Of a stretch of DNA of 64,000 nucleotides, positions 1 to 63,059 are shown one piece after another (positions within the stretch are counted from its first letter, which is position 1; every line of letters starts with the position of its first letter). Origin of the DNA: Escherichia phage MN04; sequence record MT129654.1. One strand, written 5' to 3'. The translations under genes and the position numbers were made by a program. A model generated the notes under the pieces. That model made no database searches and was not told where the DNA came from. It was given only the letters and a program-made list of their open reading frames with translations.

Positions 1-869
1 GCAAGTCCACCTAAACCCATTTGGAAAGCCATGTTTTCAAGAGCCATTTGTCTTGAACGGTTTTCTTTATTGTAAACCGGACCTACAACACTATGCCTGC
101 CTATATCGTTTTGAACTTTTTTAAGGTCTTCTTGGAATAACTTGGAAGCCTCGTCCATTGATATTGCACCCGGGTTTCCTTTAACTTCACGACCTATTTG
201 ATTAGATAATATTTTGTTTATCTGATTCATATCTCTAATAGGTTGTGGTGTAATAAGGTGACCTATACCAATAGTAGGGTATCCTTCGGTATCCCAATAT
301 ACCTTCAGTCTAAGCCCTTCATCACGATGAAGCATGTTTTCTATTGTGAAATTAGGATTATCATCAGGCTTAACTTGGCTTAAATCTAATCCATCCGGAT
401 TAATACCTACATCAGTGTTTGCATCTTGTATTACGTTAGAAGTGGCATCATATCCAACTTCACCACCTCGGTTTAGTGCAGCGGCATCATTACCTAAATA
501 AAGCGGATACTGTCCTGTCGGGTCACTAAAACCTTCGTTTGGATTTGCCTTTTGTTTTGAAGCCGAACCGTATGTACCGAGGACAAGCCCGTTTAATTTC
601 CACTTATCAAGAAAGTGTCCGTAAACTTGTGTACCTGGGACCATACCAGTCATAGCGGTTTGGATACCTGAAACAGAGGCAGAAGATGTAGGCATTAATA
701 CCGACATCCATGGTAAATCTTCTGTACGAAGGCCTTTTACAGGACCTTGTACTTTTTCATATGGATGCATACCCCAGACGCGTACGCGTACTCGGCCTTG
801 TTTGAGTGGGTCCATTCGGTCTTCAACTACACCGACGAACCAACTTAAATTATCAGACATGTTAATCAT
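1..869 (-). CDS. 5: baseplate hub subunit and tail lysozyme gp5, N-terminal portion (gene continues beyond window start)
   Basis: Minus-strand reading from ATG at 869 gives MINMSDNLSWFVGVVEDR... and a T4-lysozyme-like block RDEGLRLKVYWDTEGYPTIGIGHLI; start overlaps gp53 stop (TAATG); T4 order 53-5. Confidence 0.85.
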   Translation of the reverse strand, partial: MINMSDNLSWFVGVVEDRMDPLKQGRVRVRVWGMHPYEKVQGPVKGLRTEDLPWMSVLMPTSSASVSGIQTAMTGMVPGTQVYGHFLDKWKLNGLVLGTYGSASKQKANPNEGFSDPTGQYPLYLGNDAAALNRGGEVGYDATSNVIQDANTDVGINPDGLDLSQVKPDDNPNFTIENMLHRDEGLRLKVYWDTEGYPTIGIGHLITPQPIRDMNQINKILSNQIGREVKGNPGAISMDEASKLFQEDLKKVQNDIGRHSVVGPVYNKENRSRQMALENMAFQMGLGGL

Positions 870-1471
870 TAGAGGGCTTTCTCCATTTCGCGAATAAGAG
901 CAGAAATAAAAGACTCAATATCATTAGGGTCTATAATTTTTATTTCGCGCTTATATTCATTTTTGCGAATAGCATCCTCGTAAATATCTACTGCGGCCAA
1001 TGGGCCTTCGTATTGAGGATAACGTTTTTCTGTATCGCCTTTATCATACCAAGTATATGGATTTTCTGGTGTGTTGACAAGATTCCAGAATTTCTCGCCT
1101 TTTTCGTTTACATGGTAAAGGACCTGGTTTCCACCAGCGGTAGAATATCTTTGGATGGCTGCTTGGTAGGCGGCTTCTTGGCCGGTAATCCATCCATAAT
1201 ACGGGTCGTATATATTATTACACATCAGTAGAACCCAATATAATTGGACATTGCCATAAAGAAGATGGGCTAATTCTTCCGGACGCGGGGCTCCATTGAT
1301 ATAATAAGTTTTTAGTGTATAATTTTTAGCCACTCTATCAAAGTATTCTTTATAATTTCTAAATATATCAGTCATCGGCACGCTCAATACATCGGCATTT
1401 GTTAATGAGCCGGAATCTGGCTTGACTGTTTTTGATTCGTAATCGATAGGATCGAAAAATGAGAAGAGCAT
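869..1471 (-). CDS. 53: baseplate wedge subunit gp53 (assigned by synteny and size, 200 aa)
   Basis: ORF track 200 aa; directly upstream of and translationally coupled to gp5; late promoter upstream. Confidence 0.65.
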   Translation of the reverse strand: MLFSFFDPIDYESKTVKPDSGSLTNADVLSVPMTDIFRNYKEYFDRVAKNYTLKTYYINGAPRPEELAHLLYGNVQLYWVLLMCNNIYDPYYGWITGQEAAYQAAIQRYSTAGGNQVLYHVNEKGEKFWNLVNTPENPYTWYDKGDTEKRYPQYEGPLAAVDIYEDAIRKNEYKREIKIIDPNDIESFISALIREMEKAL

Positions 1472-1483
1472 AGGGCCTCCGAG

Positions 1484-1491
1484 TATAAATA
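1484..1491 (+). promoter_or_regulatory. T4-type late promoter TATAAATA for the gene 4 operon
   Basis: Exact TATAAATA about 27 nt upstream of ATG 1518. Confidence 0.6.
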
Positions 1492-1498
1492 ATATTAA

Positions 1499-1506
1499 TA
1501 TTTATA
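1499..1506 (-). promoter_or_regulatory. T4-type late promoter TATAAATA on minus strand for genes 53-5
   Basis: Plus-strand tatttata is TATAAATA on the minus strand, about 28 nt upstream of the minus-strand ATG at 1471. Confidence 0.6.
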
Positions 1507-17705: not shown

Positions 17706-17748
17706 GTTACTTGAACAGACTAATTAAATTTACATTTGAAGGACCCGT

Positions 17749-18345
17749 ATGAAAACGTATAAAGAATTTATCACCGAAGCTACTGCAGGAAAGGTCAAAG
17801 GCATTAATAAAGATGAGTGGACCTACCGAGGAAACGGCGTTGACAACCCAGGAAACGGCTTTGACGCTAAAACAGCTCCTATTGAACGGTATTTAGCTAC
17901 AAAAGCTTCCGACTTTAAAGCTTTCGCCTGGGAAGGACTTCGCTGGCGTAACGACCTAAATATTGAAGCTGATGGACTTAAATTTGCTCATATTCAGGAT
18001 GTTGTTGCTAGTAACTTAGACGCAGCTTTTGTTAAAGCTGACAGCGACCTTCGTCGCTGGAATTTAAAACTGTTCTCTAAACAGAAAGGTCCGGTATTTG
18101 TACCTAAAGCAGGTAAATGGACTATTGATAATAAATTGGCTAAAGCAGTCAACTTCGCTGGTCTTGAATTTGCCAAGCATAAATCAGCATGGAAAGGTCT
18201 TGATACAATGGCTTTCCGTAAAGAATTTGCCGATGTTATGACTAAAGCCGGCTTTAAGGCAGAGCTAGATACCTCTAAAGGTACGTTTAAAGACGCTAAT
18301 ATTCAGTACGCTTACGCCGTTGCTAATGCCGCTCGTGGTAATTAA
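17749..18345 (+). CDS. internal protein with CTS MKTYKEFITEA (198 aa)
   Basis: CTS N-terminus; SD gaagga. Confidence 0.65.
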   Translation: MKTYKEFITEATAGKVKGINKDEWTYRGNGVDNPGNGFDAKTAPIERYLATKASDFKAFAWEGLRWRNDLNIEADGLKFAHIQDVVASNLDAAFVKADSDLRRWNLKLFSKQKGPVFVPKAGKWTIDNKLAKAVNFAGLEFAKHKSAWKGLDTMAFRKEFADVMTKAGFKAELDTSKGTFKDANIQYAYAVANAARGN

Positions 18346-27617: not shown

Positions 27618-28373
27618 TTACGAAGTCACTGTTTGTTCGGCTACTAACAATGCAGAGGTTATTGTAAAGTTGCCGCCATTTGGCGTAACAGTTATAGCTG
27701 TACCATTGGTTGCCATTGGCCCATCTTTATCAATGCTAAAGAACGTCGTAAAAGACAAAATATCTGTAGCATTTTCTGGACGGTTCTGTATATAGGAGTT
27801 TCCGTTGGTTCCAACGAAATTTAATGTTATACTTCGAGCTTGCGAGACTCCTGTAAAATTACCAATAAGGTTGAGTTTAAACATTAGGCTTCTGTCTTGC
27901 TTATATGGCCACATCTTATCATCAGCGGTTCTAAAAAACGGAGATAGAGTCCCTGCTGTCGGCGGAATCCCCTTTAAAATACTAATTATGTTTGAAGCCG
28001 CACCATTAGTTAATAGAACGTTTATACCACTCCAAAACACTTCTGATTTTCTTCTCTTTCCTGCTGTTGCAGTCAAAAAATCATCTACTGTTCCACTATT
28101 ACCCTCATCAATCCATAATTGGTATGAAGACTTTCCTGGTTCACCTTGAACTCCCGGGTCGCCAGGATTTCCCGGGTCACCTTTATCACCTTTTTGTCCA
28201 GGAGGTCCTGGAATCTGGGTAACTGATTTTGACATCGTTTGAAAGAACCGTTCGCTGTTATCAGTTACGGTATTAGGAAGGACTACCGTTGAACCAAAAA
28301 GATGCCAGTTATCGTCTAATGCTAACTGGACCTTCTCGTTCAATTCATCGATGGTTTTTGCTGATAAAATCAT
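27618..28373 (-). CDS. collagen-like repeat protein, probable late structural or fibre-like protein (251 aa)
   Basis: Eight G-X-Y triplets PGPPGQKGDKGDPGNPGDPGVQGEPG then a Asn/Thr/Gly-rich C-terminal domain; strong SD AAGGAG and late promoter on the minus strand. Confidence 0.65.
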   Translation of the reverse strand: MILSAKTIDELNEKVQLALDDNWHLFGSTVVLPNTVTDNSERFFQTMSKSVTQIPGPPGQKGDKGDPGNPGDPGVQGEPGKSSYQLWIDEGNSGTVDDFLTATAGKRRKSEVFWSGINVLLTNGAASNIISILKGIPPTAGTLSPFFRTADDKMWPYKQDRSLMFKLNLIGNFTGVSQARSITLNFVGTNGNSYIQNRPENATDILSFTTFFSIDKDGPMATNGTAITVTPNGGNFTITSALLVAEQTVTS

Positions 28374-60742: not shown

Positions 60743-60904
60743 ATGAAATCTTTTAAAGAAGTTATGAACGAAGATATGGTCGCAGGCGATGCTGGTGGAA
60801 ATCCATCTAATATTGCCTCCGGAACTACCTCAGGCGCAGTCGTCAACAAAGGGCCTGAACAAATCCCATCTAAAAAGCGTAAAGAAAAATCCGAAAACGA
60901 ATGA
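60743..60904 (+). CDS. small protein with CTS-like N-terminus MKSFKEVMNED and basic tail (53 aa)
   Basis: ATG 60743 with SD ggccaggag; under the ORF-track cutoff. Confidence 0.35.
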   Translation: MKSFKEVMNEDMVAGDAGGNPSNIASGTTSGAVVNKGPEQIPSKKRKEKSENE

Positions 60905-60942
60905 TATAATGGCTCTATTAATTTAGAGCCCAAGGAAAAATA

Positions 60943-61971
60943 ATGTCATATGTCGATAGAGAATTTGCTGTACGTGCCTTGAATTACCAACCTAAATTCA
61001 GACAAGTAACTGGTAGTGATTTTAAATTAAATTGTCGTTGCCGTGTATGTGGTGACTCCCAAAAAGATGAAAACAAAGCTCGATTCTGGGCCTATCCGGC
61101 CAATGACGGCTCTGTAATGCTACACTGTTTTAACTGTGATTATTCGGCAGGAATTAAGAAGTACCTATACGAATATGAGCCTGATTTATATCGCGAATAT
61201 ATTCTTGAGAAACATAAAGAGCAATCGTTCGGGAGACAAGCTGCACCTAAGGTGGAGATATCTGAAAAAATTAAAGCTAAGATGCCTGTCATTGAAAAGC
61301 TTAATTTCTGTGAACGATTAGATAGAATGCCGAAAGACCATCCTATTATTAAGTATGTAACTCTGCGGTGCATTCCTGAAAATAAATGGAATCGGTTATG
61401 GTTTACTAAAGAATGGCCTGCATTGGTGAATTCTGTTAATCCAGGGACCTATTCCAAAGAAATGCCTGAACCACGTTTGGTTATTCCAATTTTCAATAAG
61501 AATAAGCAAATTGAAAGTTTTCAGGGCCGAGCCTTACGTAAAGATGCTCCACAAAAATATATTACAATAAAAGCTCATGACCAAGCTACAAAAATATATG
61601 GAATGGATACAGTTGACGAACGTCAATTGGTGTGGGTAATGGAAGGTCCTATTGATTCATTATTCGTACCTAATGCAATAGCAATTACTGGTGGGTCGTT
61701 GGACTTGGCTATGGTTCCGTGTAAAGAAACTCGTGCCTGGGTAATGGACAATGAACCCCGTCATCCTGACACAATTAAGCGTATGCAACGATTAGTTGAT
61801 GCCGGCGAAAGGGTCCTATTCTGGGACAAGGCTCCATGGCCTTCTAAAGATATAAATGATATGGTTATGAAAGATAAAGCTGATATAAATGATATATTGA
61901 CGTATATGAAAGCTAATATAGCCCAAGGGTTAATGGCAAAAATGAGGCTTTCAAAATATTCTAAAATTTAG
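60943..61971 (+). CDS. 61: DNA primase gp61 (342 aa)
   Basis: N-terminal zinc ribbon CRCRVCGDS...CFNC, TOPRIM-like core, length equal to T4 gp61; synteny 41...61-56. Confidence 0.85.
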   Translation: MSYVDREFAVRALNYQPKFRQVTGSDFKLNCRCRVCGDSQKDENKARFWAYPANDGSVMLHCFNCDYSAGIKKYLYEYEPDLYREYILEKHKEQSFGRQAAPKVEISEKIKAKMPVIEKLNFCERLDRMPKDHPIIKYVTLRCIPENKWNRLWFTKEWPALVNSVNPGTYSKEMPEPRLVIPIFNKNKQIESFQGRALRKDAPQKYITIKAHDQATKIYGMDTVDERQLVWVMEGPIDSLFVPNAIAITGGSLDLAMVPCKETRAWVMDNEPRHPDTIKRMQRLVDAGERVLFWDKAPWPSKDINDMVMKDKADINDILTYMKANIAQGLMAKMRLSKYSKI

Positions 61972-62168
61972 ACAGGAACTCCGCTAAAGAATCCAATTAT
62001 GCTTAATACGTGTTCCATTGTAACCGCTGGTAAAATTACCCCTTGGCTAGCGGCTACAGGAACTACTAAAAGATTCCAAAGGAATACGTCTAGCGCAAGA
62101 AAACCTAACATCATTTTCTTGTCTTTCTTTTCAGCCAATTTCCAGATTTGGTAAAAAATACTACCCAT
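61968..62168 (-). CDS. small membrane protein on minus strand (66 aa)
   Basis: Strong SD AGGAGG 5 nt upstream of minus-strand ATG at 62168; hydrophobic; tail-to-tail with gene 61. Confidence 0.5.
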   Translation of the reverse strand: MGSIFYQIWKLAEKKDKKMMLGFLALDVFLWNLLVVPVAASQGVILPAVTMEHVLSIIGFFSGVPV

Positions 62169-62262
62169 GTTATCCTCCTGTTAAATTAATATTTATTCGC
62201 TTTAATCTAGCAGTTTATAATTATCTAACTTACTAACAAATGAATTGATAAGGAAAAATATA

Positions 62263-62784
62263 ATGGCTCATTTTAATGAATGTTCTCAACTGATTGCCGG
62301 TGCCGATAAAGCTGAAGAAGCTTATTTTAATGCTCTGATTCACGAAGATAAAGACCCTCTGCAGGTTATGCTTGATATGCAGAAATCTTTGCAGGTTCGT
62401 TTAGCTAAAGATAAGCCTGAATATAATCGTCATCCTGATGATTTGGCCACTGCGGGTGAAGTTGTCGATTGGCTTCGCAACCAGAAAGATTATATTGATG
62501 ACGAATTCCGTGAACTTCTGACTTCTCTTGGTGGTATGAGTAATGGTGAAAAAGATGCATCTGCAGTATGGAAGCCTTGGAAAGCTCAACATGCTGAACG
62601 TCGTGAAACCCTGATTAACGATTTGTCTCCTGAAGACCAGCTCGAAATTAAATTCGAAATGATTGATATTCTGCACTTTGTTCTGAATATGTTCCAGGGT
62701 CTTGGACTGACCGCTGAAGAAATCTTTAAACTGTATTACCTTAAAAATGCCGAGAACTTTGCTCGTCAAGACCGAGGTTATTAA
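62263..62784 (+). CDS. 56: dCTP pyrophosphatase gp56 (MazG-like, 173 aa)
   Basis: MAHFNECSQLIAGADKAEEAY...PLQVMLDMQ...DDEFRELLTSLG...EEIFKLYYLKNAENFARQDRGY matches remembered T4 gp56. Confidence 0.92.
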   Translation: MAHFNECSQLIAGADKAEEAYFNALIHEDKDPLQVMLDMQKSLQVRLAKDKPEYNRHPDDLATAGEVVDWLRNQKDYIDDEFRELLTSLGGMSNGEKDASAVWKPWKAQHAERRETLINDLSPEDQLEIKFEMIDILHFVLNMFQGLGLTAEEIFKLYYLKNAENFARQDRGY

Positions 62785-62825
62785 GTTATAAATACACCTG
62801 TAATTAAACAACAAAGGAGTTAATT

Positions 62826-63059
62826 ATGGGTGGTTTCGTTAATATCAAAACCTTTACGCATCCAGCTGGTGAAGGTAAAGAAGTTAAAGGTACTGAGGTT
62901 TCAGTCCCGTTTGAAATCTATTCAAATGAGCATCGTATTGCCAATGCTCATTATCAGACTTTCCCTTCGGCCGTTGCAGCCTATACTACTGTAGTGACTG
63001 ATGCAGCCGATTGGCGAACTAAGAACGCGGCGATGTTTACGCCAACTGATATTGTTTAA
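62826..63059 (+). CDS. hypothetical protein (77 aa)
   Basis: ORF with SD aaggag. Confidence 0.5.
   Translation: MGGFVNIKTFTHPAGEGKEVKGTEVSVPFEIYSNEHRIANAHYQTFPSAVAAYTTVVTDAADWRTKNAAMFTPTDIV

Follow-up and report, generated by a model that had tools for sequence, protein, structure and literature searches.

A conserved, probably late gene of T-even phages for a small membrane protein lies tail-to-tail with primase gene 61 in Escherichia phage MN04

A 66-codon open reading frame (ORF) on the minus strand of Escherichia phage MN04, between the primase and dCTPase genes, is almost certainly a genuine protein-coding gene, judging by its conservation in related phages. It was analyzed within a stretch of 64,000 nucleotides from record MT129654.1 (referred to below as the window), which is classed as JS98-like Dhakavirus. 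Taken together, the observations are probably best explained by a conserved late membrane gene of the T-even phages that encodes an accessory envelope protein; a role of this protein in tuning lysis is a guess. The ORF starts with an ATG at 62168–62166, ends with a TAA at 61970–61968, and its translation is MGSIFYQIWKLAEKKDKKMMLGFLALDVFLWNLLVVPVAASQGVILPAVTMEHVLSIIGFFSGVPV. The initial annotation had described a hydrophobic ORF opposite to all of its neighbors and tail-to-tail with gene 61, with an AGGAGG motif 5 nt before its ATG. Both the arrangement and the motif were confirmed from the sequence: every annotated neighbor is on the plus strand, and the convergent 3′ ends overlap by 4 nt. The coordinates are collected in Table 1.

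Table 1. Features of the 66-codon gene and its immediate surroundings (positions in the window).
Feature	Position	Strand	Details
Small membrane protein CDS	61968..62168	-	66 aa; JS98-type "B" subtype, Dam.1/phrog_2024 family
Shine-Dalgarno AGGAGG	62174..62179	-	ATAAC spacer (5 nt), then ATG
Predicted gp55-type late promoter box AATAAATA	62190..62197	-	-29 to -22 from ATG
Overlap of convergent 3′ ends, 4 nt	61968..61971	.	Primase TAG 61969–61971; small-gene TAA, complement of 61968–61970
Primase gene 61	60943–61971	+	Flanks 66-aa ORF
dCTPase gene 56	62263–62784	+	Flanks 66-aa ORF

What takes the gene call beyond chance is the conservation of the frame with a coding pattern of substitution, combined with a full-length PHROG match. 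Comparison of the ORF with its relatives yielded pN values of 0.09–0.34 and (saturated) pS values of 0.55–0.93, with differences distributed over the three codon positions as 465:227:829, a pattern that indicates a minus-strand frame under purifying selection. The match to phrog_2024 (E = 6.5e-28) aligns residues 1–64 with positions 1–64 of the 65-position profile. A family HMM built here recovers the ORF at 1.3e-29 and has no other match in the window.

The opposite view, that the ORF exists by chance or is the shadow of a 51-aa ORF on the plus strand (61999–62154), draws on the abundance of such frames in AT-rich DNA, where the minus strand of the window alone holds 61 ORFs that start with ATG and reach 50 aa or more, and on the plus-strand frame sharing third codon positions, which is open over 49–65 codons in 12 of 15 relatives. 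However, that plus-strand frame is interrupted in Bp7, Q7622, and SEA1, and its 51-aa ORF lacks a Shine-Dalgarno (SD) sequence. The minus-strand ORF, its start codon, its SD sequence and its promoter signal are all kept among relatives, and the scarcity of changes at codon position 2 suits the minus-strand frame. We consider the chance or shadow origin extremely unlikely, and the 51-aa ORF was rejected as a true gene on the substitution pattern, the broken frame in relatives, and the missing SD. Only four of the 61 minus-strand ORFs have an SD core, and the full AGGAGG is found at the 66-aa ORF alone. The combination of late-promoter box, SD, and ATG is present in three minus-strand ORFs of the window: the 66-aa ORF, gp53 (a classic late gene), and a 251-aa ORF.

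By similarity, the ORF is the JS98-type version of a T-even gene that is known as dam.1 in T4T, RB32ORF030w, and RB69ORF029w, and that corresponds to PHROG 2024. The T4 counterpart, at 17738–17938, is labeled "dam.1" in T4T (HM137666, T4Tp032) and is unannotated in NC_000866; the ORF is also missing from the RefSeq annotation of JS98. An identical protein has already been deposited as "hypothetical protein" in EcWhh-1 and others, and phrog_2024 carries the annotation "unknown function". The family already has catalog entries, as hypothetical. Neither the T4 counterpart nor the identical deposited protein had been noticed in the initial annotation.

Members of the family share the opposite-strand position, with a 3′ end overlapping the gene 61 stop in T4 Dam.1, RB32ORF030w, and RB69ORF029w, a length of 61–74 aa, and a late box plus strong SD upstream. 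They also share a layout composed of a basic N-terminus, a membrane helix with Trp-Asn, a P...G...P segment, an acidic residue, and a C-terminal glycine. T4 Dam.1 differs from the window protein in being only ∼27% identical to it. The B (JS98) subtype is set apart from T4 by its N-terminus (MGSIFYQIWK) and by an Asp inside the membrane helix. The opposite-strand gene upstream is dam in T4, whereas MN04 has no dam at this locus.

Relatives located tail-to-tail with gene 61, or immediately beside it, are carried by ∼1000 T-even genomes, and both place and orientation are kept in at least nine genera by sequence comparison (eight genera of Tevenvirinae plus Marfavirus). In tblastn searches, 121 phage records contained the B subtype and 693 the A subtype of T4 and RB69, and an additional subtype turned up among 279 records. 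Enterobacterial T-even phages carry the family near-universally. The opposite-strand position at gene 61 was seen in Bp7, Marfa, VR26, Q7622, PM2, SEA1, Kosakonia 305, PEi20, SP18, NC-G, VR7, T4, RB69, PKO111, CF-SP2, and NM4.3, and the overlap of exactly 4 nt recurs in T4, RB69, Marfa, VR26, Kosakonia 305, PEi20, CF-SP2, and NM4.3. In Bp7 and one metagenomic lineage, another gene lies between the small ORF and gene 61.

The small ORF does not follow the divergence of its neighbor. SEA1 and CF-SP2 are 91% identical in primase and 17.5% in the small ORF; the corresponding values are 98% and 20% for the window and NC-G, and 98.8% and 38% for Q7622 and Kosakonia 305. Conversely, the window and Marfa are 69% identical in primase and 77% in the small ORF. 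Tandem pairs of the small gene also occur, with one copy decaying. A profile search of 1.84 billion representatives returned only 19 matches, all of them small proteins of the same family, and a scan of genome contigs located family members at only two loci.

We expect with good confidence that the gene is expressed late in infection, as suggested by its conserved signals. Of 20 promoter-proximal copies, 17 have a late box, (N)ATAAATA, 21–41 nt upstream of the ATG, mostly at -21 to -29 and at -41 in a metagenomic T4-like contig (L017). The other three copies, from Gelderlandvirus and Moonvirus, have TATTAAATA in its place. The chance of encountering a late box is ∼0.003 per 12-nt slot, and none was found upstream of the second gene in tandem pairs. 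The box in the window, AATAAATA, differs from the T4 consensus TATAAATA at one position, where it has the common A(-13). This base is the commonest natural variant and is present at 9 of 50 late promoter sites in T4 (PMC2988020), and T(-13) is poorly conserved in late promoters (PMC1524935). The early and middle transcripts of T4 share one polarity, while late transcripts run either way (PMC2988020). The small gene sits on the strand never used by early and middle transcription in T-even phages, and should therefore be silent early. Scans for sigma-70 promoters and for terminators gave scores no better than those of shuffled sequences.

Ribosome-binding signals are similarly conserved. An SD core of 4–6 nt, starting 8–13 nt before the ATG, is present in 15 of 16 copies, the exception being VR26_B, which comes second in its tandem pair, and AGGAGG or GGAGG is visible ahead of the ATG in five further lineages. 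We propose that the gene is transcribed by the gp55/gp33/gp45-RNA polymerase from AATAAATA, with a predicted start ∼6 nt downstream of the box, near 62182–62184, and a leader of ∼15 nt, and that AGGAGG, as a near-perfect ribosome-binding site, would support efficient translation. The closest parallels for this organization are soc, which is located next door and has TATAAATA at 62787, and gene 53. Both are late genes embedded beside early genes, and in both a late box is likewise followed by a short leader, an SD, and the ATG. However, they encode structural virion proteins, not a membrane protein, and soc is on the strand of the early genes.

The product is very probably a small inner-membrane protein. 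The hydrophobic character assigned to it earlier is supported by mean Kyte-Doolittle values of 1.90 for residues 19–41 and 1.67 for residues 44–66. The AlphaFold2 model (pLDDT 73) contains helices at residues 3–10, 14–41, and 51–62; the C-terminal segment, which might itself cross the membrane, comprises 23 hydrophobic residues by hydropathy vs a 12-residue helix in the model. Lys and Arg average 4.1 on the N-terminal side and 0.5 on the C-terminal side. In a merged alignment of 46 sequences, P37 is present in all, followed by N32 and P47 (44 each), W31 (43), G63 (42), and G43 and an acidic residue at position 52 (41 each). The resulting core, W-N-x4-P-x5-G-x3-P-x4-[ED] ... G, is complete in the window protein (W31, N32, P37, G43, P47, E52, G63).

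An N-in, C-out topology is predicted from the basic N-terminus, the long membrane helix, the Pro/Gly turn, and the short helix with acidic character at the C-terminus. The N-terminus (KKDKK) would remain in the cytoplasm, and residues ∼19–41 would form a single membrane helix with the near-invariant Trp31-Asn32 in its core. The conserved P37...G43...P47 turn would follow, leading to the short helix 51–62 with the conserved acidic E52 at the periplasmic face. A polar Asn in the bilayer and the very small size suggest that the protein binds another membrane helix, either of its own copies or of a partner, rather than acting as a catalyst. The first hydrophobic stretch could also be taken for a cleavable signal peptide that releases a hydrophobic acidic peptide of ∼24 residues at the periplasmic face. 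It has a basic n-region, a hydrophobic core, the invariant Pro37, and small residues at -3 and -1 before the conserved Gly43, as in A-I-A/HG of T4, A-L-A/HG of VR7, and A-A-S/QG here (A-x-[AST], the slash marking the site). However, a core of ∼20 residues that includes the most conserved W31 and N32 is a better fit to a signal anchor, and position -1 is Thr or position -3 is Leu in many members, so that cleavage appears decidedly unlikely.

Searches for known relatives of the protein gave little beyond its own family. Pfam, NCBIfam, and PADLOC yielded no meaningful match to the window protein, the best being a chance hit to SspI (E = 0.12), and Pfam searches with 30 family members gave scattered single matches only. 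No match was found between the window protein and holin, antiholin, spanin, Imm, or defense families, nor between lysis families (Pfam, PHROG-lysis, NCBIfam) and either the window protein or the 30 members. A PDB sequence profile search returned one chance match (E = 7.3). In a Foldseek comparison of the AlphaFold2 model with BFVD, only family members rose above noise, and nothing reached E ≤ 0.001. A literature search on dam.1/ORF030w and on small or unannotated T4 proteins found nothing on this ORF. The labels "Holin" (one UniProt entry), "dCTP pyrophosphatase", and "DNA packaging ATPase" attached to individual homologues were set aside as isolated, mutually contradictory, and without profile support.

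Some of the 19 cluster representatives reside in siphophage-like prophages of enterobacteria, and phrog_2024 confirms their membership at E-values of 1e-8 to 1e-11. In these prophages, the gene belongs to the late module, next to the gene for the tail tip protein and within ∼1–2 kb of a T4-type lysozyme, usually with other genes in between; in one lineage, the family member opens an operon whose last gene is the lysozyme. Its tightest linkage is not to the lysozyme but to two paired soluble proteins of ∼190 and 108 aa. One of the two proteins after tail tip protein J weakly matches phrog_1924, "minor tail protein" (E = 6.8e-8), and the ∼190-aa neighbor had one uninformative match only. The prophage gene lies where the late operon ends, directly adjoining a cargo hotspot with a DUF3800 or RelA_SpoT protein. 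The prophage-type members P0130 and P0131 had no tblastn match in isolated phages.

The initial annotation had anticipated a late or accessory gene, which agrees with the conserved gp55-type box, the T4 polarity rule (PMC2988020), and the swapping and decay of subtypes; no family match was found for its further suggestion of a role in lysis regulation or exclusion. We propose that the product is a late, accessory protein of the envelope, which would tune the timing or robustness of lysis via the holin/antiholin system, without forming the hole itself. The lysis modulator role is a guess, possible in our view and well short of an even chance. The only hint towards lysis would be the proximity of the distant prophage relatives to a T4-type lysozyme; in T-even genomes, t, rI, rIII, and e all lie away from the small gene. 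A more specific version, in which the Trp-Asn helix contacts the holin/antiholin machinery or acts in the superinfection response, with subtypes marking partner specificity, is rather unlikely; on this version, the lack of a T4 reference annotation would have kept a part of T-even envelope control hidden for decades.

T, RI, RIII, the spanins, and lysozyme e already explain the lysis of T4, which fails in t mutants; the 66-aa protein can therefore not suffice as a holin. Similar to holins and their modulators (T4 T/RI/RIII, lambda S, pinholin S21), it is small, phage-encoded, predicted to be late, and an inner-membrane protein. However, none of the holin families matches it in sequence or profile, and its first helix would be pinned by the strongly basic N-terminus, in contrast to a SAR or pinholin helix. 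A membrane helix is present, but the C-terminal tail charge usual in holins appears to be missing, the C-terminus being hydrophobic and the charges clustered at the N-terminus. The gene is also located between genes 61 and 56, not by endolysin or spanin genes, and T-even phages have T.

An inner-membrane protein could instead block DNA entry or handicap relatives in superinfection exclusion or phage-phage competition, with subtypes diversifying under conflict. T4 Imm and Sp and the exclusion proteins of prophages offer a parallel as small membrane proteins with variable, swappable alleles and, in prophages, cargo neighbors. This idea would account for the exchange of subtypes independently of the flanking genes (in the four genome pairs compared above), for the tandem pairs with a decaying copy, and for the position of the prophage gene, since the end of a late operon beside cargo is a typical site of exclusion genes. 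On the other hand, T4 Imm and Sp are early, encoded on the other strand (Sp in the same region of the window), and late-only expression would be the wrong timing in a lytic phage. Neither Imm nor any PADLOC model resembles the protein, and within the window, which covers the imm region, the family HMM recovers only the 66-aa ORF. The swapping could alternatively result from co-conversion by the homing endonucleases that crowd the locus (mobE, segF, and SegE-like genes). On balance, we give exclusion a small chance of being correct.

Late timing, the abundance predicted from the strong SD, near-universal presence in enterobacterial T-even phages, and prophage co-transcription with the two proteins after J would suit a membrane-bound helper in morphogenesis or a minor component of the virion or of ejection, such as an inner-membrane assembly anchor or a tail passenger that aids genome entry. 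However, core morphogenetic genes are not usually swapped between subtypes of 17–38% identity within one genus, and their duplicates are not usually left to decay. The small gene is far from the structural genes in T-even genomes, and the literature search turned up no proteomic report. We regard such a role as quite unlikely. The main product could also be RNA, a late antisense transcript that shuts primase off by entering the 3′ end of gene 61, with the ORF being secondary. No terminator-like sites were found in a scan of 60800–62900, and the overlapping 3′ ends leave no space for one, so that late transcription would continue into gene 61 as antisense RNA. However, strong purifying selection, the conserved SD and start, and residues kept across subtypes of 17–30% identity show that the protein is selected, and the intervening gene in Bp7 and the metagenomic lineage also speaks against RNA as the main product, which is highly improbable. 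An antisense side effect on gene 61 may exist beside the role of the protein.

T4 is the best-studied phage, yet this ORF is absent from NC_000866. Studies that rely on such reference annotations cannot report it, and it has probably escaped surveys of expression and of the proteome. Annotating the ORF costs nothing and makes a simple knockout test possible. If a knockout had no effect, the gene would be one more accessory ORF; if lysis timing, lysis inhibition, or phage competition were affected, it would be a new player in a classical system.

The 66-aa minus-strand ORF between primase gene 61 and dCTPase gene 56 (hereafter the small ORF) was described accurately in the initial annotation; its length, its opposite strand, its tail-to-tail arrangement with gene 61 and its AGGAGG Shine-Dalgarno (SD) sequence all match the sequence in every detail. 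The annotated neighbours are all on the plus strand. The stop codons of the primase gene and the small ORF overlap, so that 4 nt are common to both 3' ends. In this region, the window shares 99.2% identity with Escherichia phage JS98, of the genus Dhakavirus.

The small ORF is a real, conserved gene. Its length alone is no evidence for this, since the window contains 61 minus-strand ATG-initiated ORFs with 50 aa or more. A match to PHROG family 2024 spans the whole protein (E=6.5e-28), and the ORF was found by tblastn in 121 phage records (Dhaka-, Gapriver-, Marfa-, Kanagawa-, Mosuguk- and Gelderlandvirus). At all loci inspected, it is opposite in strand to its neighbours and tail-to-tail with gene 61, an inserted gene intervening only in Bp7 and one metagenomic lineage. 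Among seven genes of the JS98-type subtype, per-site differences are 0.09–0.34 at non-synonymous sites versus 0.55–0.93 (saturated) at synonymous sites, with dN/dS of 0.07–0.44 in the computable cases, and differences by codon position are 465:227:829. A plus-strand 51-aa ORF antisense to the gene was rejected as a shadow ORF. Its frame, open over 49–65 codons in 12 of 15 relatives examined, is interrupted in the other three (Bp7, Q7622, SEA1), it lacks an SD, and the observed substitution pattern is at odds with it. That this frame tends to stay open follows from its third codon positions, which coincide with those of the real one.

Coordinates of the small ORF and related features (window positions unless a compared locus, L, or accession is given; L012, NC-G; L014, T4 slice)
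Feature	Location	Strand	Remark
Small ORF, 66 aa	ATG 62168-62166, TAA 61970-61968	-	From sequence reading
SD AGGAGG	complement of 62174-62179	-	5 nt ahead of small-ORF ATG
Predicted late box AATAAATA	62190-62197	-	T4 late consensus TATAAATA with A at -13
Primase gene 61	60943-61971	+	Flanks small ORF
Primase stop TAG	61969-61971	+	Overlaps small-ORF stop
dCTPase gene 56	62263-62784	+	Flanks small ORF
51-aa shadow ORF	61999-62154	+	Antisense to small ORF
Gene 53 (baseplate wedge)	869-1471	-	Own late promoter present
251-aa ORF	27618-28373	-	Perfect TATAAATA box and SD
T4 homologue, 66 aa (dam.1 in T4T)	NC_000866 17738-17938 = L014 3739-3939	+	Within dam/gene 61 gap
Tandem-pair loci	L013 1295-1770; L011 1311-1614; L012 1444-1893; L005 1295-1701		T4-type plus JS98-type
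Prophage protein, ~81-95 aa	L020 5260-5544; L021 7643-7918; L024 3777-4022; L025 4712-4999; L033 5774-6049		Between J and lysozyme
Prophage cargo slot	L025 6269-7378; L027 325-1383; L033 8532-9190		Beside family member

The small ORF is the counterpart of the T4 dam.1 ORF, which lies within the 309 bp that NC_000866 leaves unannotated from dam to gene 61. The T4 ORF overlaps the gene 61 stop by the same 4 nt as in the window, is preceded by GATAAATA and AGGAGG, and its product aligns with that of the window through a common core, LLWNF..P.A...G...P.VT.D. A tblastn query with the T4 protein returned 693 phage records, and 279 records include a further subtype, found in Jiaoda-, Moon- and some Gelderlandvirus genomes with unchanged synteny. 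T4-type ORFs are already annotated as dam.1 (T4T), RB32ORF030w (RB51) and RB69ORF029w (RB69), and a protein identical to that of the window is deposited as a hypothetical protein in EcWhh-1, IME281, CLB_P2 and others. The gene belongs to an already catalogued, uncharacterised family, Dam.1/phrog_2024. Other names given to homologues, namely "Holin" (UniRef; OE5505), "dCTP pyrophosphatase" (UniRef; IME341 and SEA1) and "DNA packaging ATPase" (SAKp28, EI, MY02 and vB_YenM_P8), are mutually contradictory and without support, and look like annotation transfer errors. The protein has no match in Pfam, NCBIfam, PADLOC or the PDB, a fold search returned family members only, and no paralogue is present in the window. 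When 1.84 billion representatives were searched exhaustively by profile, only 19 clusters were hit, all of 45–82 aa.

The gene is predicted to encode a small inner-membrane protein. Residues 1–18 are basic and amphipathic (KKDKK), and mean hydropathy is 1.90 for residues 19–41 and 1.67 for residues 44–66. An AlphaFold2 model (30-sequence alignment, pLDDT 73) contains helices at 3–10, 14–41 and 51–62, with a loop at 42–50. The most likely arrangement is a single membrane-spanning helix with Trp-Asn at its centre, then a Pro/Gly turn and, on the periplasmic face, a short acidic helix; a helical hairpin, with the second hydrophobic stretch also in the membrane, is a possible alternative. The excess of Lys/Arg on the N-terminal side (family means of 4.1 versus 0.5 on the C-terminal side) predicts a cytoplasmic N-terminus. 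An A-x-A-like motif ahead of G43 makes a cleavable signal peptide possible, but this is less likely than a signal anchor. When 46 diverse members are aligned together, P37 is present in all, N32 and P47 in 44 each, W31 in 43, G63 in 42, and G43 and an acidic residue at 52 in 41 each. An invariant asparagine within a membrane helix strongly promotes association between helices, and here it suggests that the protein acts by binding a partner or by associating with itself.

The minus-strand sequence preceding the ATG, GCGAATAAATATTAATTTAACAGGAGGATAAC, contains the predicted gp55-type late box. The A at -13 is the commonest natural late-promoter variant (9 of 50 T4 sites; PMC2988020), at a position poorly conserved across T4 relatives (PMC1524935). 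An (N)ATAAATA box precedes 17 promoter-proximal copies, mostly at -21 to -29 from the ATG and at -41 in a metagenomic T4-like contig (L017); TATTAAATA replaces it in three Gelderland/Moonvirus copies. In the compared loci, the heptamer has a frequency of 2.7e-4 per position, or ~0.003 per 12-nt slot, and the sequence flanking the box has diverged between lineages, even to a different gene. No box precedes the second gene of tandem pairs, as co-transcription would predict. Only three minus-strand ORFs in the 64-kb window have both a late box and an SD: gp53 (a classic late gene), a 251-aa ORF and the small ORF. In T4, early and middle transcripts are all of a single polarity, and only late ones can be of either (PMC2988020), so a gene on this strand is expected to be late. 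Judging from these signals, the small ORF is almost certainly expressed late. Its transcript would start at ~62182–62184, with a leader of ~15 nt, and is predicted to run on antisense into gene 61, since no terminator-like site follows the ORF.

Other promoter-like sites were observed in the window. The soc gene, which directly follows gene 56, has a perfect late box at 62787. At the late promoter of gene 53, two perfect TATAAATA boxes, at 1484–1491 (plus) and 1499–1506 (minus), point away from one another in a span of 23 nt and look like a divergent late promoter pair. The 251-aa ORF contains a collagen-like Gly-X-Y run (GPPGQKGDKGDPGNPGDPGVQGEPG), is flanked by two plus-strand nrdC.10/nrdC.11-like genes, and has no match in the roughly corresponding JS98 slice, the coordinate mapping being inexact. 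Back-to-back with the small-ORF late box, a sequence resembling a MotA-type middle promoter for gene 56 was noted by eye (62195–62221, plus): ATTCGCTTTA, which matches the Mot box at 9 of 10 positions, followed by 11 nt and TATAAT (62216–62221). Also judged by eye, the complement of the late-box region in SP18 and VR7, TTATGCTTTA, is a perfect Mot box.

Some of the 19 clusters derive from siphophage-like prophages of Enterobacterales (Pseudescherichia, Pectobacterium), whose members each match phrog_2024 independently. Usually, tail tip protein J is followed by a ~90-aa protein with a membrane segment and a coiled coil, then by a T4-type lysozyme encoded on the opposite strand and, in many cases, a SegE-like homing endonuclease; next come a soluble pair (~190 and ~108 aa), the family member itself, DUF2188 and variable cargo (DUF3800 or a RelA_SpoT protein); in another lineage, the family member comes first, then the soluble pair, then the lysozyme. 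The family member is thus also in a late module near a lysis enzyme, though not reliably adjacent to it. The cargo slot, always preceded or followed by the DUF2188 gene, holds DUF3800, small lipoproteins or a 352-aa RelA_SpoT-domain protein that resembles fused toxin-antitoxin defence proteins. In five prophage loci, the protein of ~81–95 aa between J and the lysozyme begins with a membrane helix and continues as a coiled coil. It has a weak Rz-like spanin match (E ~1e-3) and could be a spanin or the holin of these elements.

Subtypes of the small ORF have been swapped independently of the flanking genes. Phages of the same genus can have primases 91–99% identical and small ORFs only 17–38% identical: 91% and 17.5% for SEA1 and CF-SP2 (L008, L031), 98% and 20% for the window and NC-G, and 98.8% and 38% for Q7622 and Kosakonia 305 (L006, L009). 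Between different genera, the window and Marfa share 69% in primase and 77% in the small ORF. Gaprivervirus genomes and Dhakavirus NC-G/ESCO47 carry a T4-type and a JS98-type copy in tandem. VR26 retains two intact copies. The JS98-type copy of VR7 no longer has its stop or frame, that of SP18 is truncated, and that of NC-G carries a frameshift. That one copy is often broken suggests functional redundancy of the subtypes. This behaviour would fit an accessory gene that takes part in conflict or in interaction with the host, but may just as well result from the homing endonuclease genes that repeatedly adjoin the locus (mobE, segF, an unnamed one in Bp7, SegE-like in prophages). The guess that the gene is late or accessory holds, through the conserved late box and strand polarity on the one hand and subtype exchange and decaying copies on the other. 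As to its function, regulation of lysis is a tentative possibility, an exclusion factor is doubtful, and a role in morphogenesis or the virion is improbable. The practical point is that the ORF is missing from the reference annotations of T4 and JS98 (NC_010105), as well as from IME08, JS10, PEi20, SP18 and other records.
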